Shown in pieces: positions 554 through 42,291 of a stretch of DNA of 64,000 bases (positions within the stretch are counted from its first letter, which is position 1; each line of letters begins with the position of its first letter). The DNA comes from Candidatus Wallbacteria bacterium. GTDB taxonomy: Bacteria; Muiribacteriota; UBA6191; JACPRK01. The notes beneath the pieces are model-generated. The model was not told the DNA's origin and did not search any database. It was given only the letters and a program-made list of their open reading frames with translations. Where the stretch lies: the NCBI GenBank assembly GCA_016190005.1, contig JACPRK010000170.1, positions 1,877-65,876 of the forward strand, given 5' to 3'. Position numbers and translations under genes: made by a program.

Positions 554-2179
554 CTACTTCGCCGGTGCCTTCGGCGAGATCGCGTCCGCCAGCAGCTGGA
601 TGCCCTTGCGGGCCTCCTCGACTGAAGTCGTCAGGGATTGGCGCGCCGCGTCGGGGTTGTGGAACCCGTCCGAGTTCTCGGCCGTCCACCACTCCCAGAG
701 AACGTGCGCTTTCATGTGCTGCTCCTGGGCTTGCTTCAGGATGTCCTCGGCCACGCCGGCCTTCTTGGCTTCGGCGATCTTGTCGATGAGCGCTCCGAGC
801 CAGAACTCGGCCTTGCGCATCTTGCCGCGCACGTAGTGCTTGATGGAGTCGATCTGGTAGATCGCCTTCTTCTCGTCCATGTCCTTGTGGCAGCGCAGGC
901 AGGTCTGTTCGAGATAGTTGCGCGGGCTCGTCTGCCAGTGCGACGTGTAGGTCTTGCCGGCCTTGTTCTTGACCTTGGGCATGTGGCAGTCGGCGCAACC
1001 GACGCCGTTCTTGTCATGGCGCGAATTCCAGAAGGTCTCGGCCTCGGGGTGCTGCGCCTTCCAGAGCAGGCCGCCCGTGCCGGCATGCTTGAAGTCGCGG
1101 AACCCGAGCTTGTTGTAGTGCTCGTACATCTGGAACACGTCCTTGAACGGGAAGTGGTTCGTCACGCCCGAGTCGTAGCCGACCTTCGTGCCGTCCGCAG
1201 GATTGAAGCCGGCGTTGCAGTTGTACTCGACGTGACACTGGCCGCACTGGAGCTTGGAGTCGTACTTCTCGAGAAGGGCGATCTTGCGGAAGCCCTCCCG
1301 GAACTCGACGACGTCGATCTTGGTGGCCTTCGGGTCCTTGTGCCAGAGCGTGTCCTTCTCGGGGCGGGTCAGCGCCTGGATCAGCGCGTCGCGAACGATT
1401 CGAGGCTTCGCGGCGTGCGGGTCGTGACAGAAGATGCAGTTCAGCGCATTGCTCACGGATCGGGCGACCTCCACGGGGTTGCTCGTACGATCGAAGCGCG
1501 CCTTCGGGTCCTTGTCCCCCATGAACTTCCAGCGCAGGATGTTGTCCTGGCTCTTGCACTGAATGCAGGTCGGGTTGGCCGCCGGCGCCGTTTCAGGCTT
1601 GAAGGGCTTGTGCTCGTTGGTCCCGGGAACGGTGTCCTCGAGAACGTCCCACGCCTTGAGCACGCCTTGCTCGGTCACGTACTGCCAGCCCTTCTTGGGC
1701 TGGAACCGACCGCCATAGGCCCGGTCGACGGCAAGGTGATCGACGAGCATGAACGTGTGGCCTCGCGGGGCGTTGTGCTCCTTCGTGAATCCGTGGCCCG
1801 CCATCAGCTTCTCCCAGGCTGGGTTCGGGGAGCGCTCGGCGGGCTGCGACTTTTCGACTCTCGCGAGCTTCTTGTAATCGAACGTCGAGAAGCTCGAGAA
1901 CTGGTCCTTGTGGCAGCCGCCGCACGTCTCGTGATCCAGACGCGTGCCTGGAAGCGACTCGACGTTGGTAGCGTGGGCCGAAAGCCCCGAGTGACAGGCG
2001 GTGCAGGACAGCGCCGCGTGCTTGCCCAGGGCCTTGAGCGGTTCGATCTCTTTGTGGCAACCGAGACACTCCGCCATGTCGATTTTCTCGACAGCGGGTT
2101 TCTTGCTCTCCGCAGCCGAGAGCGGCCAGATAGTGAGCGACAGGGCCAGGATCAACGCCGATGAATGATGGCATCTCAT
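554..2179 (-). CDS. Octaheme cytochrome c nitrite reductase family protein (ONR/TvNiR-like, NrfA-related)
   Basis: 541 aa with a signal peptide. Eight heme motifs in order: CLGCH, CTACH, CGGCH, CIQCK, CIFCH, CGQCH, CADCH, CLRCH. The fourth is CxxCK, as in the NrfA/ONR catalytic heme. NrfA-type signatures CGQCHVEY and WWTAENSDGFHNP are present. Confidence 0.85.
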   Translation of the reverse strand: MRCHHSSALILALSLTIWPLSAAESKKPAVEKIDMAECLGCHKEIEPLKALGKHAALSCTACHSGLSAHATNVESLPGTRLDHETCGGCHKDQFSSFSTFDYKKLARVEKSQPAERSPNPAWEKLMAGHGFTKEHNAPRGHTFMLVDHLAVDRAYGGRFQPKKGWQYVTEQGVLKAWDVLEDTVPGTNEHKPFKPETAPAANPTCIQCKSQDNILRWKFMGDKDPKARFDRTSNPVEVARSVSNALNCIFCHDPHAAKPRIVRDALIQALTRPEKDTLWHKDPKATKIDVVEFREGFRKIALLEKYDSKLQCGQCHVEYNCNAGFNPADGTKVGYDSGVTNHFPFKDVFQMYEHYNKLGFRDFKHAGTGGLLWKAQHPEAETFWNSRHDKNGVGCADCHMPKVKNKAGKTYTSHWQTSPRNYLEQTCLRCHKDMDEKKAIYQIDSIKHYVRGKMRKAEFWLGALIDKIAEAKKAGVAEDILKQAQEQHMKAHVLWEWWTAENSDGFHNPDAARQSLTTSVEEARKGIQLLADAISPKAPAK

Positions 2180-7320: not shown

Positions 7321-7845
7321 TCAGATCCGCTCCCGGCGCGCCAGCTCGGCCAGGACGTGCTCCACGGACTCGTCGACGCCCATGCGCCCCGTTTCGACCA
7401 CGATCTCGGGAACGGCCGGCTCTTCGTACGGATCGCTGATCCCGGTGAACTCCTTGAGCTCGCCGGCCAGCGCGCGAGCGTACATCCCCTTCACGTCGCG
7501 CCGGATGCACTCCTCCAGCGGCGCCTTCACGTAGAGCTCGACGAAATCCGGAATCATTGCACGCAGCTCCGCGCGGACTTCGCGGTAGGGCGAGATCGCC
7601 GCTCCGATCGCGACCACCCCATTGCGCGAAAGCAGGTGGCAGACGAAGCCGATCCGGCGGATGTTCGTGTCCCGGTCCTCTCGCGAAAAGCCGAGACCCT
7701 TCGACAGATGGGTCCGCACGACATCGCCATCGAGAACCTCCACATTCTTCCCCAGCTCCCGCAGTCGCGGCGCCAGCGCCGAGGCCAGCGTCGACTTGCC
7801 CGAACAGGGCAAACCCGTCATCCAGAGCGTGAATCCTCTTCTCAT
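7321..7845 (-). CDS. cysC: Adenylylsulfate (APS) kinase
   Basis: P-loop [11 protein letters not shown], then [31 protein letters not shown], typical of CysC. 174 aa. Confidence 0.95.
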
Positions 7846-7861: not shown

Positions 7862-9064
7862 TCACGGCCGTTCCAGCCCCCGATAGTGCTCCGTCAGCAC
7901 CGCTGCAACCTCGGGACGCGTGAACTCCCCGGGCAGCGGTTCCCCGCGGGAGAGCATCTCCCGGACGCGCGTCCCGGAGAGACTCAGATGCTCCTTCGAG
8001 TCGTGCGGGCAGGTCTTGGCCGACGCGAACCCGCCGCACGCCTTGCAAAAGAAGGTGTTGTCGAAGAAGAGCGGCACCAGGCCCAGCTGCTCTCGGGTGA
8101 AGCCTCGCAGGAGCTTCTGCGCGTCGTAGGTGCCGTAGTAGCTGCCGACGCCCGCGTGATCGCGGCCGACGATGAAGTGCGTGCAGCCGTAGTTCTTCCG
8201 CACTCGCGCATGGAAGAGCGCCTCGCGCGGACCCGCATATCGCATCGCCGACGGGAAGACCGAGAGCAGCACGCGGTCGGATGGGTAGTAGCGCCGCACC
8301 AGCGCCTCGTAGCAGCGCAGCCGCACGTCGGCCGGTATGTCCTCCCGGCGTGTCTCGCCGACCAGAGGATGCAGCAGCAAGCCGTCGACCGTCTCGAGCG
8401 CACACTTCGTCAGGTACTCGTGGGCGCGGTGGATCGGGTTGCGCGTCTGGAACCCGACGACCGTCGTCCAGCCGCGCTCCCGGAACAGTTCCCGAACCTG
8501 GCGCGGTGTCCGCAGGTGCTCGCCGAACCGTTCGTCGGCCGGCGGCGCCAGCAGGTCCACCGGCCCCGACAGGCAGTGCTCCGGAAGTGAGCGCAGCATC
8601 CGCACACCCGGATGCTCCTCGTCGGTCGTCCCGTAGGCCTCCCGGGCCTCGCGGACGGCGTCGCGCCGAAATTTCTCGCGCACCACCATCCGACCTCGCA
8701 GCCCGCGCGCCGCGTCCAAGAGCGCGATCTCGTCACCCTCTCGGATCTCCCGAGCCTCCTCGGCCGTCACGGACAGCAGCACCGGCAGCCCGATCGTCGT
8801 ACCGTCCGGCAGCGTCATGCCGCCCACGGTCGACTCGTACTGCCGCGCGTCCATGAACCCGTCGAGCGGCGCCAGCGCTCCGGTCCCCAGTAATCCCAGA
8901 TCCCAGAGGGCTATCGGATCGAGGGCGACCGAGCGCAACTCCCCGGCTCGCGCCAGGAGATCTTCCCGCTCTTCATTTCCGAGGATGCGCTCCTCTGGAG
9001 CTCGAAACTCTGCCACCCGGTCAGTATAGCCGAGGTCGCGGGTGCGGCCCTCGACCTCGGCCAT
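7862..9064 (-). CDS. sat: Sulfate adenylyltransferase (ATP sulfurylase, Sat type)
   Basis: [13 protein letters not shown] and [11 protein letters not shown] signatures. 400 aa. 16 nt upstream of cysC. Confidence 0.95.
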
Positions 9065-9072
9065 ATCCCATC

Positions 9073-10446
9073 TCAGACGTCATCCAGATACTTGTCGTGA
9101 TACAGCATCAGCATCATCGGGGGGACGGCGTCGGCGACCGTTCCGTCGATCAGCCGGAATGCCACCGCAATCGGCGAGGCCGCGCGGTTGTCGGTGTAGG
9201 GCGGGAACTCGTCGTCGAAGCGGCGGTTGGACTCCGTGGACCCCCAGCGCTTGCCGACGCAGAGCATGTCGAACTGCTCGAACTTCCTCGAGGCCTTGTT
9301 CCACCGGACCCAGCCGTAGACAGACGTCTCGAAGCCACGCTCAGCCGGCGTGGGCGTGCTCACCTCGGACTGCTTCCAGACTCCTCGCGCAACCGTGCGC
9401 GTGGCGCCTTCGAGCTTGATCTGCACCACGTCGCCCTCGATCTTCTCGACGACTCCGTCGATCGACGCCACCTTCACGTCGTCTCGGCCGAAGGGCGTGC
9501 TCAGACCGAGCACATTGTCTACGAGCTGGTAGCGGGCGAGCCGCCTGGCGAAACGCTCCGGCAACGAGAAGCGCTGACCCACCTCGAGCCGCTCGGGCAC
9601 CATCTCTGCCGGGTTCTCGTACCACGTGGCATCCATGTTCCACATGCCGAGAGTCCACTCCTTGCCGTAGTTGCCGTTGGCCTTCGGGTCGAATGGTCCG
9701 CGCTCGAGATCACGCGTGAAATTGCGCAACACCAGCGTGCCCTCGGGAATTCGGCGTCCATCGATGAAATGACTCCAACGGAAGCCGTGAGCCAGCTCGG
9801 ATGTGACCGAGCTCTTCAGGAGCCGTTCCTCCTTCGTCAGCTTCTTCCACTCCGCCAGCGCTTCTTCCAGCATCGGCTTCAAGTGGGTATCGCCCACCCG
9901 CGGGTTCTTGTTGAACGACGCCAGCGGCCGCCCACTCGGTGCGATCGCGTAGAAGCCGATGACGGTGGAACGCTCGCTCCAGCCGTGGTTCTTCCACGCC
10001 CGCTGCAAACTCGGCTGATCGGCCATCCCCGACTTGAAGAGGAACGGCCGCAACTCCGGATGATCGTGGACCTTCTTCTGCCAGGCCTTGTGATCCTCGG
10101 CAACAGGAATGAAATTCTGGGTGACCAGCTCCCTCACCCCGGGGTCGGACCAGACGAACCGCCGGTCATAGGCGCCCTGGCTTCAGACGAAGCCCATCGG
10201 CTGGCCGCGCTTCTGCCAGAGCAGGATCGGCTTGTCCTCGAGCTGCGCTTCCACGAGCGCCTCCAGCATCGTGAGCCGCCACGGGATCTCCTGGAAGGTG
10301 AGCTCCCTGGCCGGTGGCTGCACCCGCTGGAACAGCTTCCGCGCCTCGGCATCCTCCATCCGGGTCGGCGGCGCAGCCTGCGCCGCTCCGACGGCCACTC
10401 CCAACAGGACCGACCAGACCACCCCCCGCCAGCGCATCTCCATCAC
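9073..10446 (-). CDS. Secreted thioredoxin-fold (Thioredoxin_7-like) protein with one in-frame TGA (10183..10185): candidate selenoprotein, otherwise a disrupted gene
   Basis: ORFs 10183..10446 and 9073..10137 share one frame. The junction reads KPILLWQKRGQPMGFV-TGA-SQGAYDRRFVWSDPGVRELVTQNFIPVAED. Signal peptide at the N-terminus. The TGA falls at the position of the first Cys of the Trx CxxC motif. Confidence 0.55.
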
Positions 10447-10528
10447 AACGAAACCTCCTCGGCTCCCCGATCCACGACTTCAGTCTCCCAGGTCACCTCT
10501 CTAAAGATAGCACGACCAATGAAAACCG

Positions 10529-10587
10529 GGAAAACTGGGGACACACGACCAATTTTAAAAAAATTGGTCGTGTGTCCCCAGTTTTCC
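10529..10587. repeat. Perfect 59-nt palindrome (28-nt arms, 3-nt AAA centre)
   Basis: GGAAAACTGGGGACACACGACCAATTTT-AAA-AAAATTGGTCGTGTGTCCCCAGTTTTCC, read directly. AT-rich centre in a GC-rich genome, within the divergent intergenic region 10447..10661. Confidence 0.9.
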
Positions 10588-10661: not shown

Positions 10662-12170
10662 ATGAAGCCGATGAATACCCCCACGCACTTCGCCCGCGCG
10701 GGGCGGGCCGCACTGGCGGCGTCGCTGCTGCTCCTGGTCGGCCTGGCCGCGACGGCCATCGCCGAGGACCCGCCCTCGAAGAAGGAAGAGGAGCCCTGGA
10801 TTCCGGGCACAGACGAGGGACCTCCCTCACGCTGCCTCATCATCGGCATCGCCCGCTATCCGGCTTCGGAGGACGCGCTCCCGGCCGTCTCGGAGCCCGC
10901 CCGAAACCTGGCCCGCTTCTTCAAGGCGGGCTCCTTCAAGTCGATCGTCACGCTCTTCGACGAGGAGGCGACCTCGGAGGCCATCCGCCGCGAGGTGGAC
11001 AAGCTCACAAGCTACCCCCAGCCCTCGCGCCGCATCATCATCAACTATAGCGGCTGGCAGTGGAAAGACCCGGCCTCCGGCGCCAGCTTCCTGGTGCCCT
11101 ACGACGGCCTGCGCGACGGCTCGATGAAGAACCTCATCCCGATGGACCACGTCTCCCAGCGCCTGGCCCAGTCGAACGCCGAGCTGCGCGCAGCCTACTT
11201 CCACACCTGCTTCCGCAAGCTCGACCCGACCCCCATGGCCCGCGGCTTCGGCTCACTCGACTGGAAGGCTGAGGTGATTCCGGTCCCCGTGGGCAGCTGT
11301 GCCATTCTCACCTGCGGCCCGGAACCTACCGCCCTCGAGGAGCTCGGGCCATCCGGCGCACCCCCCACCCCTGCCACGACTGGGTCGCACAAGCCCAGCG
11401 TCCGCCGTAAGGGCCTGGCCTACCTGGGCCTCAACGGCCAAGGCTACGAGGAGTACAAGAACGAGCGCGACGGCTCCATCCTCATCTACGTCCCCGGCGG
11501 CACCTTCTGCCTGGGCCACGGCGGCCGCTGGATCGACACCATCCCGCGCGTGCGCGCCACCCTCTCGCCCTACCTCATTGGCAAGCACGAGGTCACCCTT
11601 GGCCAGTACAAGAAGTTCTGCGACGAGACCCCGTACGAGATGCCGAAGGTCGGCTGGTGGGACCCGGCCGATGACGAGCCGATGGAGGAAATGATGTGGG
11701 AAGACGCCGTCGGCTACGCGGACTGGGCCGGGTTGCGGCTTCCGACCGAGGCCGAGTGGGAGTACGCCGCGCGCGGGCCCGACGGACGCCGGTTCCCCTG
11801 GGGCAACGAACCCTGGAATGCCGGAGGGACCTTCCGGGCCAACTTCTTCGGCGACGAGGAGCTGGGCGTCACCTGTGACAAATTCTTCCGCACCGCGCCC
11901 GTCACCGCCTTCCCCGAGGGCGCCTCGCCATTCGGCTGCCTCAACATGCTCGGCAATGTGATGGAGTGGTGCGCTGATCGTTACGACGCCTTCGCCTACC
12001 TGACCGCCGAATCGACCAACCCGCAAGGCCCCAGCGCCGGCATCCACCGCACCCGCCGCGGCGGCAGCTGGAACTCTCCGCCCGAGGAGGTCCACGCCGC
12101 CAACCGCGGTCTGAACCACCCCTCGGAGCAGTGGGAGGACACCGGTTTCCGGATAGCGTGCTCTCCTTGA
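10662..12170 (+). CDS. Secreted caspase-like (peptidase C14-like) domain fused to an FGE/SUMF1-type (formylglycine-generating-enzyme-like) domain
   Basis: Signal peptide. N-domain CLIIGIARYP...IIINYSGWQW...AAYFHTCFRK resembles the caspase fold. C-domain RLPTEAEWEYAARG...FPWG...RGGSWNSPPEEVHAANRG...GFRIA is the FGE-sulfatase (PF03781) pattern. Confidence 0.75.
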   Translation: MKPMNTPTHFARAGRAALAASLLLLVGLAATAIAEDPPSKKEEEPWIPGTDEGPPSRCLIIGIARYPASEDALPAVSEPARNLARFFKAGSFKSIVTLFDEEATSEAIRREVDKLTSYPQPSRRIIINYSGWQWKDPASGASFLVPYDGLRDGSMKNLIPMDHVSQRLAQSNAELRAAYFHTCFRKLDPTPMARGFGSLDWKAEVIPVPVGSCAILTCGPEPTALEELGPSGAPPTPATTGSHKPSVRRKGLAYLGLNGQGYEEYKNERDGSILIYVPGGTFCLGHGGRWIDTIPRVRATLSPYLIGKHEVTLGQYKKFCDETPYEMPKVGWWDPADDEPMEEMMWEDAVGYADWAGLRLPTEAEWEYAARGPDGRRFPWGNEPWNAGGTFRANFFGDEELGVTCDKFFRTAPVTAFPEGASPFGCLNMLGNVMEWCADRYDAFAYLTAESTNPQGPSAGIHRTRRGGSWNSPPEEVHAANRGLNHPSEQWEDTGFRIACSP

Positions 12171-12375: not shown

Positions 12376-14010
12376 ATGTCTCACGCCTACTCCCTCGACC
12401 CGGTCCTGTACACCTCCGCTTCCGACGCGGTCGACCAACGCTACATGGGCCAGATGCGCGAGCAGGACCAGGCTCCGGTCGCGACGGATGCCTCCAAGCC
12501 CCGCTTCACGCTCGTCGTCGGGCCCTCGCCCTTCACGATGCCGCGCGGCTGGGAGTTCTTCCTGGCCTCCCCGTACGAGGGCATCTCCTACATCGCCACG
12601 GTGCTCCACAACGCCGGTTATCCGGTTCGCATCGTCGACGTCCGCTACGACCGCAATCCGGTCCAGTCGGCGCTGGATCAGATCCTCCCGGGCACCGACG
12701 TGCTGGGCGTCGCGACCTTCGAGGACAACTTCCCCTTCCAGGAGGAGCTGATCGCCCTCGTCAAGCAGCGCCGGCCCGACCTCCCCGTCATCCTGGGCGG
12801 CTCGCTCGTCACCTCCGTGCCGCACGTGCTGATGCGCCACACGCGCGCCGACGTCGCCGTCATCAGTGAGGGCGAGATCACCATCCTGGAGCTGCTCGAC
12901 AGCTACGCGGCCGGCGACTGGCCGCGCAAGCTCCCCGAGATCCGCGGCATCTGGTATCGCACGCCGTCCGGGGAGATTGCCCGCACCACGCCCCGCGGCC
13001 AGGTGTTGGATCTCAACTCCCTGCCGCGCATGAACCTCTCGCTCTGGCCTCAGGCCCGTGGCCCGGGCGGTCTGCAGCCGCAGATCATCGCCTCGCACAG
13101 CCGGGGCTGCAAGATGGACTGTTCCTTCTGCTACCGCACGACCCCCCAGCTGCGCGAGAAGTCTCCCGAGAAGCTGCGTCAAGAGCTGCGTCATCTGAAG
13201 GACAACTACCAGATCGAGTTCGTCTTCTTCGTCGACCTCACCTTCACCTCGGACAAACGGCGCACACTGGAGCTCTGCAGCGTCATCGAGGAGTTCGACA
13301 TCGGCTGGACCTGCCTGACACGGTGTGCCGATGTCGATCCGGAAGTTCTCGGCGCAATGCAGCGCTCCGGCTGCGACATCATCCTCTACGGGGTCGAGTC
13401 GCTCTCGGCCAAGGTGCTGCGCGAGGCCCGCAAGGGCAGCCACGAGAACACCGTGCTGCGCGCGATGAACCAGACCTTCGACGCCGGCCTGCGATTTGGC
13501 GGCCTCACCATCGTCGGACTGCCCGGCGAGACCGAGGAATCGCTCGATCACATGTGCAGCTGGGCCGAGGAGTACCGGCACATCACGCGCGTGAAGTACC
13601 TCTCCGCCATGCCCGGCACCACCGTCTACCACGAGGCGCTGCGCGACGGGATGATCAGGAGCGAGGTCGATCACCTGCGCTGGCTCGCCACCGAGCAGGC
13701 GCTGGAGCGCGACGAGTTCCTCAACTACAACGGCCTGCCACCCACCGTCATCCGGCGCGCCTACAGGCGCCTCTACGACAGCTACCAGCCCGGCCCCGTG
13801 ATGGACTTCCGCCACTTCCCGGCCGAGTTCGAGTACTTCGATCCCGATCCGGACCCGTCCCGACCGTGGCGAGGCAAGTTCAGCAGCGCGTCCGCTCCGC
13901 TGATGCCGGGGATCGAGAATCACCGGCGCCCCGAGCTCTGCCACCCGGGCACGCGCTTCACCCCCCACCCGATCGAGGCGCAGCCGCCGATGCCGCCCGC
14001 CCACGTTTGA
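12376..14010 (+). CDS. Cobalamin-binding-domain radical SAM protein (class B)
   Basis: CKMDCSFC (Cx3Cx2C) radical SAM cluster motif. It is preceded by a Rossmann-like B12-binding-type domain (VRIVDVRY...DVLGVATF...PVILGGSLVT). 544 aa. Confidence 0.85.
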   Translation: MSHAYSLDPVLYTSASDAVDQRYMGQMREQDQAPVATDASKPRFTLVVGPSPFTMPRGWEFFLASPYEGISYIATVLHNAGYPVRIVDVRYDRNPVQSALDQILPGTDVLGVATFEDNFPFQEELIALVKQRRPDLPVILGGSLVTSVPHVLMRHTRADVAVISEGEITILELLDSYAAGDWPRKLPEIRGIWYRTPSGEIARTTPRGQVLDLNSLPRMNLSLWPQARGPGGLQPQIIASHSRGCKMDCSFCYRTTPQLREKSPEKLRQELRHLKDNYQIEFVFFVDLTFTSDKRRTLELCSVIEEFDIGWTCLTRCADVDPEVLGAMQRSGCDIILYGVESLSAKVLREARKGSHENTVLRAMNQTFDAGLRFGGLTIVGLPGETEESLDHMCSWAEEYRHITRVKYLSAMPGTTVYHEALRDGMIRSEVDHLRWLATEQALERDEFLNYNGLPPTVIRRAYRRLYDSYQPGPVMDFRHFPAEFEYFDPDPDPSRPWRGKFSSASAPLMPGIENHRRPELCHPGTRFTPHPIEAQPPMPPAHV

Positions 14011-16349: not shown

Positions 16350-17759
16350 ATGCGGTACAACTCCTTCGCGTTTCTCGTCTTCGCCGCCGTCTTCTTCGCC
16401 ACATGGCCGCTGGTGCGCGGGCGCGACCGCAGCCGCTGGGTGGCCCTCACGCTCTTTTCCTTCTTCTTCTACGGGTGGTGGGACTGGCGCTTCACGACGC
16501 TCCTGGCCGCAAGCGGCCTCATCGACTACTGGGCCGCGCTGGCCATCGAGAAGTGGCGCGACCGGCGCCGGCCGCTCCTGGCCCTTTCCCTGGGCTGCAA
16601 CCTCACCATACTGGGCGCGTTCAAGTACGCCGGCTTCGCAGCCGAAAGCTTCAACAGCCTCTTCGAGGCCCTGGGAGGCAGCGCCTGGCTGCCCGTCCTC
16701 AGGATGCTTCCGCCGGCCGGCCTCAGCTTCTACACGTTCCAGGCGATGAGCTACACCATCGACGTCTACCGCGGCCGGCTCGCGGCGACGCGGGATATCT
16801 TCCACTTCTTCTCGTACCTCACCCTCTTTCCCCAGCTGGTCGCCGGTCCGATTGTGCGGGCCGCCGATCTCTTGCCTCAGCTCACCTGGGGCCGGGCGGT
16901 GACCGCCGAACAGCGGTGGGGTGGATTGCGCCTGATGGCGCAGGGTTTCTTCAAGAAGATGGTCATCGCCGACAACCTGGCCCCCGCCGTCAATCATGCG
17001 TTCTCGGCCTTCGACGTCACTCCCTCGGCGCCCTACTGGTGGCTGGTGGTGTCGATGACGGCCTTTCAGGTCTACGGCGACTTCAGCGGCTACTCCGACA
17101 TCGCGACGGGCCTCTGCAAGTGGATGGGCTACCAGCTCCTCCCCAACTTCGATCGCCCTTACACCGCCGCGAGTATGCGGGAGTTCTGGACCCGCTGGCA
17201 CATCTCGCTCACGAGCTGGTTCCGCGACTACGTCTACTACCCCTTGGGCGGCTCGCGCGGGACGGAGGCGATGACACACCGCAACAGCTGGCTCACCATG
17301 CTGCTGGTCGGCATCTGGCACGGGGCCAGCTGGAACTTCGTCGCCTTCGGCGTGCTACACGCCACTTTCCTCTCTGTTGAAAGGGTGGCCCGGATTCCGG
17401 AGCGGCTCTGCAAGCTGCCGCTGGGGCGGCCCGCCGCGGTCCTGCTCACGCTGGCGCAGGTCTGGCTCGGCTACGTGCTCTTCCGGGCCGTCAGCTTCGA
17501 CCAGGCAACCCGGATCATCCTTACACTCTTTTCACCTGGCGGGATGGACCAGGCAGGCCTGGGGCTGCTCCGGCCGGCGCTCCCCTTCCTGGCCCTCGGA
17601 GTGCTCTGGGAGCTGATCGCGGCGCTGGAGCCCCACAAGTGGTCCGTGACCGCGACCTCCGGGTGGCGGCAGGCGCAGATCGTCTTCACGGCCGTGCTCA
17701 TCTTTTGTTGCGTGTACCTGCGAGGGCCGGGTTCGGCCTTCGTCTACTTCCAGTTCTGA
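16350..17759 (+). CDS. MBOAT family O-acyltransferase (AlgI/DltB/PatA-like), copy 1
   Basis: SFYTFQAMSYTIDVYRG, FPQLVAGPIVRA and the invariant-His block GIWHGASWNF. Multi-pass membrane protein. 12 nt after the DUF3604 stop. Confidence 0.9.
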   Translation: MRYNSFAFLVFAAVFFATWPLVRGRDRSRWVALTLFSFFFYGWWDWRFTTLLAASGLIDYWAALAIEKWRDRRRPLLALSLGCNLTILGAFKYAGFAAESFNSLFEALGGSAWLPVLRMLPPAGLSFYTFQAMSYTIDVYRGRLAATRDIFHFFSYLTLFPQLVAGPIVRAADLLPQLTWGRAVTAEQRWGGLRLMAQGFFKKMVIADNLAPAVNHAFSAFDVTPSAPYWWLVVSMTAFQVYGDFSGYSDIATGLCKWMGYQLLPNFDRPYTAASMREFWTRWHISLTSWFRDYVYYPLGGSRGTEAMTHRNSWLTMLLVGIWHGASWNFVAFGVLHATFLSVERVARIPERLCKLPLGRPAAVLLTLAQVWLGYVLFRAVSFDQATRIILTLFSPGGMDQAGLGLLRPALPFLALGVLWELIAALEPHKWSVTATSGWRQAQIVFTAVLIFCCVYLRGPGSAFVYFQF

Positions 17760-19652: not shown

Positions 19653-21065
19653 ATGACCTTCAACTCCTTCCCGTTCCTCATCTTCGCGATCGTCTTCTAC
19701 TCGCTCTGGCCGTACGCCAGGCAGCGACAGAGCTGGCGATGGTTCTTCCTCGTCGTCTTCTCCTTCTTCTTCTACGGCTGGTTCGATTGGCGCTACCTGG
19801 GACTGCTATTGGCCAGCGGCGTCGTCGACTTCTACGCGGCCCTGGCGATGAAGCGCTACCCCGAGCGGCGCCGCGCGCTGCTCTGGCTCTCCATGTCCGC
19901 CAACCTGGGCTTGCTCGCGGCTTTCAAGTACATCACGTTCTTCACGACAAACCTCAACGAGCTCTCGCGTCTGCTGGGCGGCGACGCGCTCGTCCCGGTC
20001 CTCTACGTCTTTCCCCCCGCCGGCATCAGCTTCTACACCTTCCAGTCGATGAGCTACACCATCGACGTCTACAAGGGAAAGCTGGCGCCAACCGACAGCC
20101 TGCTCAAGTTCTTCGCCTTCCTCTCGCTCTTTCCTCAGCTGGTCGCCGGTCCCATCGTGCGCGCCACCGAGCTGATGGACCAGCTGGACGGCGTACCCAG
20201 CCCCACCGAGCGCCAGCAGTGGGAGGGGCTGCGCCTGCTGGTCCACGGCTACTTCAAGAAGGCCGTGCTGGCCGACAACCTCGCCCCGGCCGTCGAGCAC
20301 GCCGCGGGCGCGCTCCATTTCATCGATTCCACCCCCTTCTGGTGGCTCGCAGCGCTAATGCTCGGCATCCAGATCTACTGCGACTTCGCCGGCTACAGCG
20401 ACATCGCCCGAGGGCTCGGCAAGTGGATGGGCTACGAGTTCCCGGTCAACTTCGACCATCCCTACCTGGCCACCTCGCTGCGCGGCTTCTGGATGCGCTG
20501 GAACATGACCGTGACGCGCTGGTTCCGCGACTACGTCTACCTCGGCCTCAAGGGCTCCCGGACCAGTCTGTGGCGTTCTGCCCGCAACCTCTGGATCACC
20601 GTCATCCTCCTCGGCTTCTGGCACGGCGCCAACTGGACCTTCGTCATCTTCGGGACGCTTCAGGCCATCCTGCTCACCATCGAGCGCGTCACGCACCTCC
20701 CCAGGCGCCTCGCCAAGATCCCGTTCCTGGGCCGAGGCATCTGCGTCGTGCTGGTCGCGCTGCAGATGATGCTCACGGGCGTCTTCTTCCGCGCGCCCTC
20801 CGTGGAGCACGCCCTGCTGGCCCTCCAGGCGATGCTCTCATTCAAGTCGTTCGACACCGCCCCCATCGGCTCCCTCTTCTTCGCCATCCCCTTCCTGATC
20901 GTGGCCATCCTCTGGGAGGTGCTGGTCTTCTGCGGGGCCGACATCAAGACCCTGGAGCGCTCCCCCCGCTTCGTCCGCCTCGAGCCTCTCCTGCTCATCC
21001 TGATGATCGTCTGCTCGGTCTACCTCCGCGGCCTCGGCACCGCCTTCGTCTACTTCCAGTTCTGA
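19653..21065 (+). CDS. MBOAT family O-acyltransferase, copy 2
   Basis: SFYTFQSMSYTIDVYKG, FPQLVAGPIVRA, GFWHGANWTF. Roughly half of residues identical to copy 1 by eye. Confidence 0.9.
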   Translation: MTFNSFPFLIFAIVFYSLWPYARQRQSWRWFFLVVFSFFFYGWFDWRYLGLLLASGVVDFYAALAMKRYPERRRALLWLSMSANLGLLAAFKYITFFTTNLNELSRLLGGDALVPVLYVFPPAGISFYTFQSMSYTIDVYKGKLAPTDSLLKFFAFLSLFPQLVAGPIVRATELMDQLDGVPSPTERQQWEGLRLLVHGYFKKAVLADNLAPAVEHAAGALHFIDSTPFWWLAALMLGIQIYCDFAGYSDIARGLGKWMGYEFPVNFDHPYLATSLRGFWMRWNMTVTRWFRDYVYLGLKGSRTSLWRSARNLWITVILLGFWHGANWTFVIFGTLQAILLTIERVTHLPRRLAKIPFLGRGICVVLVALQMMLTGVFFRAPSVEHALLALQAMLSFKSFDTAPIGSLFFAIPFLIVAILWEVLVFCGADIKTLERSPRFVRLEPLLLILMIVCSVYLRGLGTAFVYFQF

Positions 21066-24609: not shown

Positions 24610-25953
24610 CTACTCCCCTTGCGAGTCCTCGGGGGGCGGAGGGTAGTAGGCTAGCCTCTCGCGCAGCTCGCGGGCCAGCTCGTGGCGTTCGCCGCAACGC
24701 TCGAGCGCCTCGGCCAGGGCCTGGTCGCGGCCGGCGCCGTCGTCTTTTTGACTCAAAAGCTCCGCGAGCTCCGTCCATGCCGTCGGATCGACAGCGCTGG
24801 CGCCGAGCGCGGCACGCAGCTGCACAACGGCCTCGTCTAGCTGGCCGGCCTCGGCCAGGTACCGGGCAAGATGCCGCCTCGACGCGGGTGTGGTCGCGGC
24901 CGGGCCCAGTCGGGTCCGCAGCAGCTCCGCGGCCCGAGCGTCCTGGCCGTCCTTGGCCAGCGCCACGTAGAGGTCCAGGCTCGCCTGCTGGTGCTCGGCC
25001 GGCGTCGCTGGATGGGACAGCGCCTCACGCAGCCCGGCGGCAGCCTCGGCGTGGCGCCCCAAGGCCGAGAGGACCCGGCCCCGGAAAGCCAGCAGCCAGA
25101 ACCGCACGTCCCCGCCCTCGGAGGCCAGCGCGGAGCCGACCGCGTCCAGCAGCGCCTCGCGCTCGCCTTGGAGGAACCGGCGCTCCAGCTCCGCCGACAC
25201 CAGGCGGGGACGGTTGCCGAGGAGCTGGAAGCCCCGCTGGATCAGCTCGGCGGCGCGGGTGAGCTGGCGCGTCACGTGCAGGTAGCCGTGGACCAACATC
25301 AGCAGGTGCTGCTCGGCGAAGCCAATCTCGGCCTCCCTGCGCTGCCCGTGGCCGCAGAGCGCCAGCCGTGTGGCGATCGCCCCGAGCGCCTGGTCTGCGC
25401 TGGCCCGGGCCTGCGACTCGTCTCCGGCACGCGCGCACGATTGGGCCCAGGACACGCGCACCTTGACGTCACCCGGCGCAAGCTCGAGCGAGCGCGCGTA
25501 GGCCCTGCGCGCTTCGGCCAGCAGACCCGTCTGCTCCAGGGCGCGCGCCAGCGCCGACCAGGCCCCACCGCACGCAGGATGCTGCCTCACGGTCTCTCTG
25601 GAGCACTCGACCGCCCTCTCGAGCAGGCCGTTCGCCAGCAGCCCCTCGCATTGCTTGACCGCCCGATCCGCGTAAAGGCTCTCATCCGACGGCGGGCCAG
25701 GTCCCAGCTCGAGGAACGAACGCGCAAAACGATCGAAGCTCACGCCGGCGTGCTCGGTGAACGCAGCGACGTCGGCAGCTAGCGGCAGCCACTCGTCGGG
25801 TGTCAGCCGTCCGTCGCCGTTCCGATCGAAGGCGGCGAAGGCACGGGACAACGCCGTCGAGCCGGCGGCGTCGATCGGCGGTACCGGCACGGCCAGCACA
25901 CCGGCCGCCGGCGCTAGAGCGAAGCACATGCAGAGCGCGAGCGCGCGTCTCAC
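24610..25953 (-). CDS. Secreted EF-hand + TPR repeat protein (module copy 1)
   Basis: Canonical EF-hand loop DRNGDGRLTPDE followed by TPR-like Ala/Leu-rich repeats. The GTG start overlaps the stop of the upstream sulfatase-like gene (GTGA). An alternative ATG is at 25929. Confidence 0.7.
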   Translation of the reverse strand: MRRALALCMCFALAPAAGVLAVPVPPIDAAGSTALSRAFAAFDRNGDGRLTPDEWLPLAADVAAFTEHAGVSFDRFARSFLELGPGPPSDESLYADRAVKQCEGLLANGLLERAVECSRETVRQHPACGGAWSALARALEQTGLLAEARRAYARSLELAPGDVKVRVSWAQSCARAGDESQARASADQALGAIATRLALCGHGQRREAEIGFAEQHLLMLVHGYLHVTRQLTRAAELIQRGFQLLGNRPRLVSAELERRFLQGEREALLDAVGSALASEGGDVRFWLLAFRGRVLSALGRHAEAAAGLREALSHPATPAEHQQASLDLYVALAKDGQDARAAELLRTRLGPAATTPASRRHLARYLAEAGQLDEAVVQLRAALGASAVDPTAWTELAELLSQKDDGAGRDQALAEALERCGERHELARELRERLAYYPPPPEDSQGE

Positions 25954-27536
25954 CAGTACCCCCTCTGACGGAAAACGGCGCGCTCGGCGTCGGTCAGGTG
26001 GGAGCTGGTGCCTCGTGGCTCGGCCCGATGACGTTCCACCCAGTCGCGCAGCATGCTCGCAAGACGTTCGGCCTGCTTGGTCTCGCGAGTGCTGACGTCG
26101 GTCTGCTCGAGCGGATCGGCGGCAAGGTCGTAGAGCTCGCGCGCGCCCGACGGGCGCAGGAGGAGATGCCACCGGCGCGAGCGCGCCGAGAGCTGGTCCG
26201 AGAGCGCGCTGAAGGCGACACGGTCAGGCTCGGAGGGGGGAAGCCCGCCCGGGGTCAGGTACGGGGCCAGCGAGCGGCCCACGTGCCCGTGGTCGGGCGG
26301 GAACCCGGCAAGCGCCAGGAGCGTAGGCGCCAGCCCGAACGTCTCGACGACGTCGGTGACCCGCCGACCTCGGGCCACACCGGGCCCCGCGATGACGAGC
26401 GGAACGTGGATCTGGCGGTCGTAGAGGCTCCAGCGGTGGCCGAAGTAGCCGTGCTCGCCCAGCTCCTCGCCGTGGTCACCTGCGACGACGATCACGGTCC
26501 GGTCATCGAGACCCAGACGCGCCATCGACTCCAGGAAGAGCCCGAGCCAGGTGTCGGCGTAGGTGACGGCCCCGTCGTAGTGCGCAACCACGTGGGCAAC
26601 GTCGGCCGCCCCCAGCCTCACCTCGCGCACGGACCGCGCGGCGCCGGAGGTCACGCGCCCGGCCGGCGAGGACGGCCCGACCCAGCGGAAGACATTGCCG
26701 GCCACGGTTCTCAGCACCTCGCTGTCGAGGACGTTCAGATCGTGAACGGGGCCGGCGTAGCCCCGGTCGTACATCTCGGCGAACCCCATCGGAGGCTTGT
26801 AGGGCAGGTGCGCGTCATAGCCCTGGACCATCAGGAAGAAGGGCTCCGGGTCGCGGTCGCGCAGCCACTGGATCGCCGCCGGAACCGTGTGGAAGAGGGA
26901 GCCGTAATGGGGCGCATCCCGATAAGTCTGGAAACCCTGGGCCATGCCGAACAATCGGCTCAAGTGGCCGCCGCCGACGAAGCCCGCTGTGCGGTATCCG
27001 AGCCTGCCGAAGATCTCCGGGAGAGTCGTGAACGAGTCGTCCAGCTTCTGACACCGCTCGTCGACGGCGTGCGCCGGCGGCGGCAGCGAAGTGAAGATCG
27101 AGGAGTAGGTCGGCAGGCTCCAGGAGCTCGGCGCAATCGCAGCCTCGAAGAGCGTGCCGCGTGCGGCCAGGGAATCGAGCGAGGGCGTGGTGGCGCGAGG
27201 GTACCCGTAGCAGTGGACCTGCGCGGCACGAAGCGTGTCGATGAAGAACAGGACGACGTTGGGGGGATGAAAGTCGGGGGGACTGGACCTGAGCCCAGGC
27301 GGGGGCCTTGCCCCCGAACCCCCACCAGGAGACCGCAGGCCCCCTGGACCCCCGTTGGCTTGCGGCTCTGGGGGTAAGTGAAAGTTTGGAGAGCTCGGCG
27401 GGTTCGAGGACTCCTTCGATTCCCCCATGGCTGCCTTTGGCGCACCGGCAGCCGGTCCGGACCCGGAGCAGAACAGGCTTAGCAATAGAGCAGGCCCTAA
27501 CCCGGCTGAAGCCGCCATGTTCCGTCCACAAACCAT
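25950..27536 (-). CDS. Sulfatase-family (alkaline phosphatase superfamily) protein lacking the CxPxR motif, copy 1
   Basis: NVVLFFIDTLRA...TTPSLDSLAARGTLFE...SSWSLPTYSSIFTSL...GDHGEELGEHGYFGH. Signal peptide, then an extra linker encoded by repeat A copy 3. Alternative start at 27518. Confidence 0.8.
   Translation of the reverse strand: MVCGRNMAASAGLGPALLLSLFCSGSGPAAGAPKAAMGESKESSNPPSSPNFHLPPEPQANGGPGGLRSPGGGSGARPPPGLRSSPPDFHPPNVVLFFIDTLRAAQVHCYGYPRATTPSLDSLAARGTLFEAAIAPSSWSLPTYSSIFTSLPPPAHAVDERCQKLDDSFTTLPEIFGRLGYRTAGFVGGGHLSRLFGMAQGFQTYRDAPHYGSLFHTVPAAIQWLRDRDPEPFFLMVQGYDAHLPYKPPMGFAEMYDRGYAGPVHDLNVLDSEVLRTVAGNVFRWVGPSSPAGRVTSGAARSVREVRLGAADVAHVVAHYDGAVTYADTWLGLFLESMARLGLDDRTVIVVAGDHGEELGEHGYFGHRWSLYDRQIHVPLVIAGPGVARGRRVTDVVETFGLAPTLLALAGFPPDHGHVGRSLAPYLTPGGLPPSEPDRVAFSALSDQLSARSRRWHLLLRPSGARELYDLAADPLEQTDVSTRETKQAERLASMLRDWVERHRAEPRGTSSHLTDAERAVFRQRGYW
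27310..27374 (+). repeat. REP/MITE-like element, family A, copy 3 (inside the coding region of 25950..27536)
   Basis: GCCCCCGAACCCCCACCAGGAGACCGCAGGCCCCCTGGACCCCCGTTGGCTTGCGGCTCTGGGGG. Translated in the gene frame as PPEPQANGGPGGLRSPGGGSGA. Confidence 0.8.
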
Positions 27537-27793
27537 CTCCTCGGAGACTGGCGGTTCGCAGTGACGGGCGCGTGACAAGAGGGCTACGCCTGTCCGAAGT
27601 TCACGTGTCAGTTGTGACCGTGGGGTAGGACAAACATCCCCAGGCAAGCCGCGCCTGCGGCGCGCCCCAGACCCGTTGCGCACACGCACTTCCTGAACCT
27701 CAGTGTTGAAGAGCTGTTTCGGTAGAAGCAGCTGCGGACCCGCTACCGCCGGCCTTCACCGCAAGGCCGCGGCCAACTCGCCGGCGGCATGAG

Positions 27794-29989
27794 CTACCGC
27801 GTCGGACGAGTGGTAGCCGAAGTCACTGGCACTGACTCCTCCGCCAGTCGCGCCCGCAGCTCCCTTAGCCCCGCCCGCCGCGCTTCGGGGATCTCGCCAC
27901 CGGCCAGCGCCCGGTCCAGCGCCCGCACCCCGCCGGCACCATCGCCGATCTCCTCCAGCATCAGCGCCAGCTGCTCCACGGCTCGCGCATCGCCGGGCTT
28001 GGCCTCGACCCCTCGTCGCTGGTGCGCCGCCGCTCGCTGCTTCTTCCCCAGGCTCGAAAGCACCCCCGCCATGAGGAACTGCGCAGCAGCATCGCCCCCC
28101 AGCGCGTCGACCTCGACGCCCTGGAGCGCCTCGACGGCGCCCGGCCGGTCACCCGACTCGAGCCGGGCCTGCGCCAGCAACAGCCGGTTCGCCGCCGCTC
28201 CCTGCCCCCCTCCAATCGCCCGCTCGAGCCAGACGGCGGCCTCACGCATCCGATTGCGCGCCAGAAGCGCCCGCCCGACCTCGAGCACCGCAGCTGCCGA
28301 AAGCCGCTCGGCCTCGAGCCGCCCGAGCGCCGCAGATCCGTCCGCGTCTCGCCCCAGGTCCAAGAGCAGGCCAACCTCCAGTGCCGCGGTCTGCTCGACT
28401 CCGGCGTTCAACCGCCGCGCCTCCCGCACATGCTCGAGTGCCTCTGCGCGCCTCCCGGCCCTGGCCAGCGTCCGTGCCAGCGCCAGCCGCAGCGTCCCTA
28501 GCGTTCCCCGCGCAGCAGTCGCGCCCAAGCGCTCGAGCGCCTGGCGGGCGGCTCCGGCAGCCTTCGCGTCCTGACCGCTCTCTTCGAGCCGCCGGACCTT
28601 TTCAGTCCAAATTGACGCCTCCCCGGGATGGCGGACCAGCGCGCGATCGAGCAGCCCCAGGACGGCCCCGGGCGGGCTTCCTGTCTCGTCCATCAGCGCC
28701 GCCAGGTCCAGGTAACGCACCGCACCCGCCCGCGCGTCCTCACGCAGCATCCGCTCGAGCCCGGCCACATCCCCGGCCGCCTGCGCGCGCTCGTACGGAC
28801 TCGCCAGCCCCTTCCCGCCCGGCATCCGTTCCAGATCCTGGAGCTGCCACGCAGCCTCGGCCCGCCGGCCGCACCTGAGCAGCATCCGCGCCACATCCAG
28901 CCGCTCCCGCGCCGTCCTCGATCGCGCCACTACAAGGGCCAACGCCTGGCTGGCCGCGGCCGTCCGCCCCGCGCTCGTCAGCGCCTCGACCTGGTCCAGC
29001 ATCGTCATCCGCCGCTCCGACGGCGCCCCTTCCCCACTCCTGGCCAGCGCCTTCGCAAACCACTCCGAGGCCTCCGCGGCCCGCCCCTGCCGCCTCGTGA
29101 TCCGGCCGCGCGCGTCGAGCGACCAGTAGCTCACACCGCTCTGACGCTCCTCCCGGTCCAGCTCCACCAGAGGCTCGCCCGTCCCGCCCACCGCCATGGT
29201 CCAGGCCCGCCGCGCGGCCAACCTGGGCCGCCCACCTAGGAACTTCTCACAGCGCGCCAGGAGCTCGAGCGACTTCGCGGGCGCGGACGCCTCGTGCGTG
29301 AAGTACTGCGTCAGCCTCATCACTTCGCCCTCGGCGTGCCCCAGCTCTGCCTCGCGACGGTTGCCGCGGCCGTGAACCGCCAGCCGCAGATCCAAGAGCG
29401 CAAGCCCCCGCTCGAGCGCCCGCTCGCTCGCCGCTCCGGTGCCCAGGGCATGCTCGACGGTGGCCAACCTCAGCCATGCCATCTGGCTGTTCGGCGCAAG
29501 CTCCGTCGCCCGGCTCAGCGCCCGCCGGGCCTCCTCGCGCCGACCCTGCTGTCCCAGCACCTCTCCCAACGACGTCCACACGCCGGCCCACTCCGGGTAC
29601 AGCTCGATCGCCTTTCGATACCGTGCCTCGGCGCCGGCCAGGTCGCCTGCTTCGGCCAGCGCCTTCCCCTCGCTGAGGAAGCGCTTGGCAAGGATGCCCT
29701 GGTTTGGGGGAACCCGCGAGTTGACCACTTCGAACGAGCGCGCGAATTCGGCCAGTCCTATCGCGCCATCGCCGTCGAAGTCGATCGGCTCGTCGGCCTT
29801 CTCCCGGACGAGAGGCTCCCATTCGGCCCGCGAAATTTTTCCGTCCTCATCAAGGTCGAAGCGCTCGAACGCGCTCCGGACCGCCGCCGGTGGATTCGAA
29901 GGGTCGAAAATGCTCGGCCGCCCGGCAGCATCGACCCGGAGGGCGTAGACGCCCAGGAGCAGGACCGCAGCCATCGCGCGCGCTTTCAC
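27794..29989 (-). CDS. Secreted EF-hand (x2) + TPR repeat protein (module copy 2)
   Basis: EF-hand loops DLDEDGKISRAE and DFDGDGAIGLAE, followed by a long TPR-like region. The start overlaps the stop of the upstream sulfatase-like gene by 4 nt. Confidence 0.75.
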   Translation of the reverse strand: MKARAMAAVLLLGVYALRVDAAGRPSIFDPSNPPAAVRSAFERFDLDEDGKISRAEWEPLVREKADEPIDFDGDGAIGLAEFARSFEVVNSRVPPNQGILAKRFLSEGKALAEAGDLAGAEARYRKAIELYPEWAGVWTSLGEVLGQQGRREEARRALSRATELAPNSQMAWLRLATVEHALGTGAASERALERGLALLDLRLAVHGRGNRREAELGHAEGEVMRLTQYFTHEASAPAKSLELLARCEKFLGGRPRLAARRAWTMAVGGTGEPLVELDREERQSGVSYWSLDARGRITRRQGRAAEASEWFAKALARSGEGAPSERRMTMLDQVEALTSAGRTAAASQALALVVARSRTARERLDVARMLLRCGRRAEAAWQLQDLERMPGGKGLASPYERAQAAGDVAGLERMLREDARAGAVRYLDLAALMDETGSPPGAVLGLLDRALVRHPGEASIWTEKVRRLEESGQDAKAAGAARQALERLGATAARGTLGTLRLALARTLARAGRRAEALEHVREARRLNAGVEQTAALEVGLLLDLGRDADGSAALGRLEAERLSAAAVLEVGRALLARNRMREAAVWLERAIGGGQGAAANRLLLAQARLESGDRPGAVEALQGVEVDALGGDAAAQFLMAGVLSSLGKKQRAAAHQRRGVEAKPGDARAVEQLALMLEEIGDGAGGVRALDRALAGGEIPEARRAGLRELRARLAEESVPVTSATTRPTR

Positions 29990-31446: not shown

Positions 31447-31502
31447 GCTCTCCCTACCGGCCGGCGCCGCCGGGCGCCGGCCCCGACGCTCTTCGAGTTG
31501 GA

Positions 31503-34152: not shown

Positions 34153-34180
34153 GCTCGACCACCGGAGGCCGGCGAGGAAG

Positions 34181-37472: not shown

Positions 37473-37484
37473 ACCTCGTCCCGC

Positions 37485-42248: not shown

Positions 42249-42291
42249 GGCTTGAGGAGTGAGGCTTGGAGAGTCGATGGAGAATTCGAGG

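Follow-up and report, generated by a model that had tools for sequence, protein, structure and literature searches.

A candidate exported selenoprotein with a thioredoxin-like domain, encoded across a conserved in-frame TGA in a Candidatus Wallbacteria contig

The gene at 9073..10446 and its internal TGA

The DNA analysed here (the window) is a stretch of 64,000 nucleotides (nt) from contig JACPRK010000170.1, assigned to Candidatus Wallbacteria, and our subject is a candidate selenoprotein gene on its minus strand at 9073..10446. One frame of that strand holds two open reading frames (ORFs), of 87 aa with a GTG start (10183..10446) and of 354 aa (9073..10137), and the public annotation calls both halves "hypothetical protein". 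As the original prediction had it, these ORFs are separated by a lone TGA: translation of 9073..10500 in one frame gives a single internal stop, in the context GQPMGFV, stop, SQGAYDRRFVWSDPGVRELV (at the junction of the two ORFs, KPILLWQKRGQPMGFV, stop, SQGAYDRRFVWSDPGVRELVTQNFIPVAED), and the codon itself reads TGA (10185..10183). The G+C content of third codon positions (GC3) is 0.85-0.87 on either side of it, and both halves are intact. The same truncated N-terminal ORF of 86-87 aa recurs in several independent assemblies and is also carried by a second contig with a near-identical copy (L009), from a groundwater metagenome-assembled genome (MAG) labelled Candidatus Wallbacteria, so an assembly error does not account for the internal TGA. 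The neighbouring ORFs annotated as "hypothetical" form a single gene.

This complete gene is a single frame with one internal TGA and with homologues conserved across the junction, and it terminates at another TGA (9075..9073). Its preprotein would be 457 aa from the GTG at 10446 or 456 aa from the ATG at 10443. A Shine-Dalgarno-like GAGGAGG (10454..10460, minus strand) lies 7 nt before the GTG and 10 nt before the ATG, and by its sequence would function as the ribosome-binding site. Counted from the ATG, the internal TGA (10183..10185), read as selenocysteine (Sec), is residue 87.

Fifteen nt after the TGA starts a hairpin (10148..10167, minus strand; nt 19-38 from the U of UGA) that had been put forward as a selenocysteine insertion sequence (SECIS). 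Reading GACCGGCG-GUU-CG-U-CUGGUC from 10167 to 10148, it has 8 bp (4+4), one bulged U and a GUU apical loop, and it is the minimum free energy structure of the 45 nt after the TGA (-13.6 kcal/mol, ViennaRNA). The published bacterial SECIS model asks for a loop of 3-9 nt that has G in its first two positions, 4 bp or more in the upper stem and a distance of 16-37 nt from UGA to loop (PMC13188914). The window hairpin, with 23 nt from UGA to loop, falls within all of these constraints.

Conservation of the TGA and of the hairpin behind it

A word-indexed protein search was nearly blind to the family (4 and 7 matches, and three relatives at first), which was uncovered through a genome pattern scan and an exhaustive HMMER search. 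The scan covered one genome per GTDB species with peptide patterns that leave out the TGA, and confirmed 175 relatives; the best 80 of these supplied loci, and 88 loci were compared in all. The homologous codon is TGA in 88/88 loci, never TAA or TAG and never a Cys codon. In each case protein conservation runs on across the TGA, so that homologues neither end nor split there, a check that the original prediction had asked for; on every contig of the three relatives found first, a short upstream ORF in the same frame has its terminal TGA at the homologous place.

Carriers of the TGA form belong to Planctomycetota (Gemmataceae, Isosphaeraceae, Pirellulaceae, Phycisphaerales and Brocadiaceae), Armatimonadota (Fimbriimonadaceae and Chthonomonas), Verrucomicrobiota and Chloroflexota (Thermoflexus), with a few MAGs labelled otherwise. 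The usual context of Sec (U) is PILLWAMNGHPL[A/G]-C-T-U-N-N-G-V..R..VWSDP, and a verrucomicrobial subgroup has C-N-T-U-G-N-G or [G/A]-N-T-U-G-N-G. Across the 88 loci, F-V-U-S-Q-G is limited to the window gene, its near-identical copy and L001, a 67% identical homologue that reads GQPMGFV-U-SQG; relatives at about 30% identity read GCT-U-GNG and GCV-U-NNG. The family-invariant residues are all present in the window protein.

The HMMER search, run over 1.84 billion cluster representatives, returned 2,354 family representatives, 1,063 of them at E<=1e-10 and 407 at E<=1e-30. Most of the best 150 (137) are fragments of 210-405 aa whose match starts just after the Sec column, as gene callers would truncate selenoproteins by restarting after the UGA; two of the fragments, of about 720 aa, bear a C-terminal extension. 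The other 13 are full-length and carry Cys (5), Asp (3), Ser (2), Ala (1), Arg (1) or Glu (1) at the Sec column, and the word-indexed search gave one more Ala form. Cys aligned to the TGA, another check named beforehand, was found in P0015 (S-T-C), P0031 (Q-A-C), P0066 and P0129 (both C-x-C) in a MAFFT alignment, and was assigned by eye in P0065 (C-x-C). The two Cys forms retrieved as DNA use TGT (P0066, locus L090) and TGC (P0015, locus L093). Such forms are rare (5/150 best representatives).

One long homologue, P0012 (1541 aa), matches the family with its C-terminal part, where Asp stands in the Sec column and Thr replaces the partner Cys; by eye, its N-terminus resembles a Ser/Thr protein kinase and is followed by repeat regions.

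The hairpin was followed through a gap-free alignment of 83 distinct sequences. The family helix pairs nt 19-26 with nt 30-37 from the U of UGA (typically GCCAGACG-GUC-CGUCUGGU), and the first nucleotide of the apical loop is an invariant G. Helix cells are paired in 78.5% of cases, a figure that drops to 21-52% if the 3' arm is moved along by 1-3 columns, and the count of double changes was reached by 0/500 shuffles. At the closing pair 29 sequences have G-C, 22 have A-U and 4 have G-U; the covarying columns, 29 and 33, are the second base of an Arg/Gln codon and the third base of the next codon (G-C 29, A-T 22, discordant 4 + 7). On inspection, family members use two stem registers. The first, that of the main family, is a continuous 8-bp stem with no bulge, and the second, which includes the window, has C for A22, one U bulged and the lower stem shifted by one.

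Codon choice within the stem bears on the hairpin from a different direction. Within the 5' arm, 47/83 genes (57%) encode Arg by AGA or AGG, compared with 194/2,989 Arg codons (6.5%) elsewhere in the same genes (p = 5e-32), and CGC, elsewhere the commonest Arg codon (48%), occurs there once. Within the 3' arm, 69/70 genes (99%) encode Val by GTC, compared with 44% elsewhere (p = 3e-23). Since these choices are synonymous, they are evidence for the hairpin that is independent of the protein sequence. L001 keeps the TGA, the flanking residues and the hairpin, and differs from the window in the stem by one synonymous substitution, CGG->CGA, through which a G.U pair becomes A-U. In 3/4 non-Sec homologues the same stretch folds weakly (-5.1, -6.8 and -7.6 kcal/mol) relative to the Sec genes (median -11.6, range -7.9 to -18.5 kcal/mol), which, for four genes, is no more than suggestive. 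The hairpin is thus kept in orthologues at the same distance, with covariation and codon bias, as the original prediction required. Two features are strongly supported: the UGA (10185..10183), as a conserved and selected feature of a large protein family, and, a fixed distance behind it, a conserved stem-loop whose apical loop begins with G.

The predicted protein and the weighing of alternatives

The N-terminus, encoded at 10375..10446, has the features of a signal peptide of the general secretory (Sec-type) pathway, as had been proposed: (M)MEMRWRGVVWSVLLGVAVGAAQA|APP contains two Arg, its hydrophobic core is 13 residues long, there is an A-x-A site, and cleavage would probably follow AQA; its best 11-residue hydropathy window is 2.57. 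A hydrophobic N-terminal segment is found in 72/80 family members. The Chloroflexota-type members L007, L046, L077 and L078 (Thermoflexus and relatives) keep C-x-U and the TGA and have no such segment; they may be cytoplasmic or exported differently.

An AlphaFold2 model of the read-through sequence, built from a 71-row alignment, has a mean predicted local distance difference test (pLDDT) score of 84.5 and a predicted template modelling (pTM) score of 0.86; residues 1-20 have low pLDDT, consistent with a signal peptide. Residues ~30-210 (9814..10356) form a predicted thioredoxin-like alpha/beta domain, in which residues 142-160 are a lineage-specific insertion of low confidence. A strand (73-77) precedes Sec87, which lies two residues before a helix (89-96), and judging by this predicted secondary structure Sec would occupy the position of the nucleophilic Cys in CxxC proteins. 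In a Foldseek search of the PDB this domain matched 3ira (E 6e-4, probability 1.00), AGR3 (3ph9, 0.98), DsbD-gamma (1vrs_E, 0.95) and also PDI-A6/P5 domains. The likeness to Thioredoxin_7 and DsbD-gamma that had first been noted by eye is borne out at the level of the fold but not of the sequence: at E<=1 the window protein has no match to Pfam Thioredoxin_7 (PF13899; gathering threshold 27 bits), and 11/32 family N-terminal domains match it below threshold (best E 0.0097; L002 with 13 bits, E 0.12).

The modelled fold, with its reactive residue at the N-terminus of helix 1 as in the thioredoxin-fold superfamily, agrees with the proposal that the TGA stands at the first redox-Cys site and Gly at the usual second one. 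A CxxC-type redox motif is not what the family has. An invariant Gly stands at +3, and the motif common to the family is C-x-U, with a partner Cys two residues upstream (-2) that is >90% conserved. The single Cys of the window protein (residue 396) is not conserved even in L001, leaving Sec as its only candidate redox residue.

The C-terminal half of the protein (residues ~230-456; 9076..9756) is modelled as a beta-rich domain of long antiparallel strands, with pLDDT mostly >90 and the conserved motifs RDL, WNxDxxW, RLxR, D.V.G, G.RWG and N.R.DD. Foldseek found no PDB fold match for it with a probability above ~0.12, and sequence searches of PDB, Pfam and NCBIfam gave it no match. When profiles of the full-length and N-terminal alignments were run against PDB sequences, Nef, MarR and p65 came up at E 0.4-1.2, and we discarded these matches as chance.

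Taken together, the internal TGA almost certainly encodes selenocysteine, and we give a probability of roughly 0.87 to 9073..10446 being one gene for an exported selenoprotein. The selenoprotein interpretation of the original prediction is upheld by the conserved TGA, the conserved hairpin, the Cys homologues and the thioredoxin fold; the decoding of the TGA, the export and the reaction catalysed are what we infer from them. In the mechanism we propose, SelB with Sec-tRNA(Sec) would bind the stem-loop on the translating mRNA and insert selenocysteine, giving a preprotein of ~456 aa that its signal peptide would direct across the cytoplasmic membrane. The mature protein would hold a selenol at the N-terminus of the first helix of its thioredoxin-like domain, the nucleophile position of CxxC oxidoreductases, and the C-terminal domain, with its invariant Arg, Asp, Asn and Trp, would most likely bind the substrate. 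In most family members the Cys at -2 (C-T-U-N-N-G) would form a selenenylsulfide with Sec for the redox cycle. The window branch (F-V-U-S-Q-G) has no conserved Cys anywhere and so must act via a single selenol, as a catalyst or a carrier; its chemistry might pass through a mixed selenenylsulfide with the substrate or a small thiol, or through a selenenic-acid intermediate.

Several observations weigh against this interpretation. Shuffled versions of the G+C-rich window sequence fold as stably as the window hairpin itself (z = +0.46), so that this hairpin, taken alone, is not statistically remarkable and carries no weight. At the family level, shuffles reach 76.2% paired against the 78.5% observed, a small margin that follows from the high conservation of the hairpin columns, and the p value of the covariation between columns 29 and 33 (4e-7) is not corrected for phylogeny. 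RNAalifold gave no consensus structure for the 83-sequence alignment because of the two stem registers, and the named helix was tested in its place. Neither selA, selB nor selD was found among the 30 window ORFs scanned with Pfam (43 called), and ARAGORN found no tRNA or transfer-messenger RNA (tmRNA) in the 64-kb window, hence no selC there. The F-V-U variant of the window branch is without the partner Cys, and its chemistry may differ or be impaired.

Some of these points would also fit a family that is genuinely Sec-containing and a window copy that is a decaying or functionally diverged relic, poorly decoded or not at all. The window branch is 31-45% identical to the main family, its hairpin has the shifted register as well as the unremarkable stability, the Sec machinery was not seen in the window, and P0107, which resembles this branch, has Glu in place of Sec. 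We nevertheless consider a relic improbable, since GC3 and intact reading are maintained in both halves, L001 keeps the TGA, its flanks and the hairpin with a synonymous change that preserves pairing, the family-invariant residues are complete, and the gene has a strong Shine-Dalgarno sequence and heads an apparently intact operon.

If the TGA were a real stop, the locus would be a pseudogene or would make two products, a secreted peptide of 87 aa and a cytoplasmic protein of 354 aa with its start at GTG 10137. In favour of this, every public annotation has two hypothetical ORFs here, and a GTG sits 15 codons past the TGA. Those 15 codons (SQGAYDRRFVWSDPG), however, rank among the most conserved of the family, the codon is TGA at every locus compared and never another stop, the Cys homologues are continuous, and a stop would sever the modelled thioredoxin fold behind strand 1, ahead of helix 1. 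Conservation across four phyla is not to be expected of a nonsense mutation, and we hold this reading to be very unlikely.

Reassignment of UGA to Trp or Gly exists in some uncultured bacterial lineages, and sequence alone cannot separate read-through from Sec insertion, but decoding of the TGA as Trp, Gly or Cys, by reassignment or by near-cognate read-through, is scarcely credible here, given that the carriers are four ordinary code-11 phyla, that Cys is the commonest substitute in the Sec column, where neither Trp nor Gly occurs, that the G-first stem-loop suits SelB-dependent decoding, that tRNA-Sec genes lie near two family genes, and that TGA is not reassigned, since it ends this gene, the majority of called window ORFs and 32 of the 83 distinct family genes (TAG 38, TAA 12).

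The two tRNA-Sec genes (anticodon TCA) were found among 90 loci scanned with ARAGORN, in L053 (Armatimonadota; 2214-2308, 3.7 kb upstream of the family gene) and in L067 (Planctomycetia; 12976-13068, 5.8 kb downstream). By our own estimate (~0.8 Mb of loci and one tRNA-Sec per several-Mb genome), chance would give ~0.1-0.2 matches. There are no sel genes beside either tRNA, the neighbours being housekeeping genes (histidine phosphatase, EPSP synthase and cytidylate kinase). Full sets of Sec-insertion genes are reported for Gemmata obscuriglobus and Isosphaera pallida (PMC4807772), and the families of both genera number among the carriers of this gene. In L010, a Planctomycetales MAG, 11 tRNA genes are clustered on one strand (8988-10300) about 5 kb downstream of the family gene. 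A scan of the whole window against Rfam at gathering thresholds gave zero matches, also for the hairpin.

Three other same-frame ORF pairs of the window were considered as selenoprotein candidates (36369-37472/37473-38510, 54499-54792/54793-55290 and 56937-57956/57957-59780) and dismissed as ordinary neighbours, with the downstream ORF starting 3-5 codons past the TGA. Each ORF of the first pair, the only one covered by the Pfam scan, has its own Pfam domain (BatA/VWA).

Genomic setting

Downstream of the selenoprotein gene and on the same strand lie sat (ATP sulfurylase, 7862..9064; Pfam ATP-sulfurylase, 2.5e-95, plus PUA_2) and cysC (adenosine 5'-phosphosulfate (APS) kinase, 7321..7845; Pfam APS_kinase, 9.4e-59). 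The gap to the sat ATG (9064) is 8 nt and that between sat and cysC 16 nt, and no terminator-like site was found on the minus strand between the three genes. From this arrangement the selenoprotein gene probably heads an operon, with cysC as its third gene, and would be co-transcribed with both. The linkage noted in the original prediction is therefore supported within the window by the short gap and the lack of a terminator-like site, but it is not a feature of the family: L001 has a convergent gene downstream in place of sat. When ORFs within 7 kb were clustered for 83 loci, no neighbour was conserved in more than 7, a result that counts against assigning a function; the top clusters were the gene itself and shadow ORFs. 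With no conserved neighbourhood, guilt by association fails and the sat-cysC link cannot be generalised. On gene order, the sat-cysC operon is a feature of this lineage and not of the family.

Other genes with a sulfur theme lie at 10662-12167 (+), 25953-27689 (-), 29989-31446 (-), 31431-32888 (+) and 42259-43167 (+). Directly upstream of the selenoprotein gene, and divergent from it, is a fusion gene with a caspase domain and an FGE-sulfatase domain (FGE, formylglycine-generating enzyme), and three sulfatases are found 16-23 kb away, together with a phosphodiesterase/sulfatase-like protein. An operon in so sulfatase-rich a region hints at a link to sulfur metabolism and does not establish one. 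A cytoplasmic thioredoxin-like reductant for 3'-phosphoadenosine-5'-phosphosulfate (PAPS) reductase might account for the linkage to sat and cysC, but we rejected it as the principal interpretation, since the protein has a signal peptide and signs of export run through the family.

Between the divergent starts of the selenoprotein gene and the FGE-like gene lies a perfect inverted repeat of 28 nt (10529-10587; GGAAAACTGGGGACACACGACCAATTTT / AAAATTGGTCGTGTGTCCCCAGTTTTCC), unique in the window, with 3 nt between its arms and an A+T-rich centre, against 68% G+C for the genome. An operator, a bidirectional terminator and a small mobile element are all conceivable roles for it. In a few unrelated loci (L002-L004, 2539-3444 etc.; L089, 7478-8080), among them that of the Ala-form homologue, the family gene is directly followed by a gene with PF06439 (3-keto-disaccharide hydrolase/DUF1080), too rarely for a conserved neighbourhood.

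Elsewhere the window has an aerotolerance-type (Bat) operon at 33166-41460 (+), with a MoxR AAA_3 ATPase, DUF58, BatA-type and BatB-type VWA proteins and BatD. Near its start it encodes a multihaem, NrfA-like cytochrome c552 (557-2179, minus strand; Pfam 4.3e-61), and two MBOAT membrane O-acyltransferase paralogues lie 2 kb apart (16350-17756 and 19653-21062, both plus strand). The gene content (many sulfatases, a protein with a prepilin-type N-methylation motif and the Bat operon) points toward Planctomycetota/Verrucomicrobiota-like organisms, as do the selenoprotein's relatives, and the Candidatus Wallbacteria label may deserve a check.

Novelty of the family and comparison with known systems

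A 2026 review lists 119 prokaryotic selenoprotein families and subfamilies with Pfam, NCBIfam, TIGRFAM, CDD or PANTHER identifiers (PMC13188914), and BSepDB was assembled from previously reported families (PMC13326102). We found no match to the 119 via Pfam or NCBIfam, entries known only by CDD or PANTHER identifiers not being directly compared. Three family members had zero NCBIfam release 20 families at E<=1, and Pfam gave nothing above threshold on the read-through proteins. Among the entries of a supplement from 2016 is a planctomycete selenoprotein candidate, unnamed and termed "hypothetical". We regard the family as uncatalogued in the family libraries and selenoprotein catalogues searched; a mention in papers beyond them is possible. 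The authors of deep-Sep state that their method may miss selenoproteins without Cys homologues (PMC12013277), and the present family was probably overlooked because predictors rely on abundant Cys homologues, which are rare here.

A broader proposition, which we offer tentatively and think doubtful, is that the family is an unrecognised, almost obligately Sec-dependent class of exported redox enzymes, with a C-terminal domain of new fold and a new extracytoplasmic reaction, possibly among the most widespread selenoproteins of Planctomycetota and Armatimonadota, and that the Cys-less window variant, recruited to the sat-cysC operon near sulfatase and FGE genes, acts on a sulfated substrate or on an oxyanion of sulfur or selenium. 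Recognition of the family would correct the public records that split this gene and >1,000 relatives, and would add a selenoprotein family to phyla thinly covered by selenoproteome surveys. Sec is retained so strongly in this exported thioredoxin-fold protein as to suggest chemistry in which sulfur substitutes poorly, and the question of why selenium is used at all can usefully be put to this family. The cultured genera Fimbriimonas, Chthonomonas and Thermoflexus, which are named among the MAG labels, and Gemmata and Isosphaera, as relatives of the carrier families, may make the structure and substrate of the C-terminal domain tractable.

Like this protein, the catalogued thioredoxin-like bacterial selenoproteins have a thioredoxin-like fold and one Sec in their redox motif, directly followed by a SECIS, and the catalogued Sec.1 also shares the C-x-U spacing. 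They differ in that the NF041199 and PF13192 models do not match this protein or its relatives, and in the beta C-terminal domain, the size of ~400-460 aa and the taxonomic range.

The element behind the UGA can be compared with the SECIS of Escherichia coli fdhF, likewise a stem-loop within the coding sequence, directly after the UGA, with a small apical loop of G then U. The fdhF stem has a bulged U, as in the window version, whereas the main-family stem here is a continuous 8 bp without a bulge; sequence similarity between the two elements is limited to the loop, and the present one has no Rfam match.

Proteins of the Thioredoxin_7 type (DsbD-gamma, AGR2/AGR3 and 3ira) differ from this family in their CxxC or CxxS motif, where it has C-x-U or x-x-U followed by x-x-G, in a loop before the active site that is several residues longer here, and in the absence of the fused C-terminal domain of ~230 residues. 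What they have in common is a fold onto which the modelled N-terminal domain superposes, with the reactive residue at the N-terminus of helix 1. DsbD-gamma and the AGR proteins are also extracytoplasmic, as is predicted here from the signal segment, and the AGR proteins work with a single reactive Cys (CxxS).

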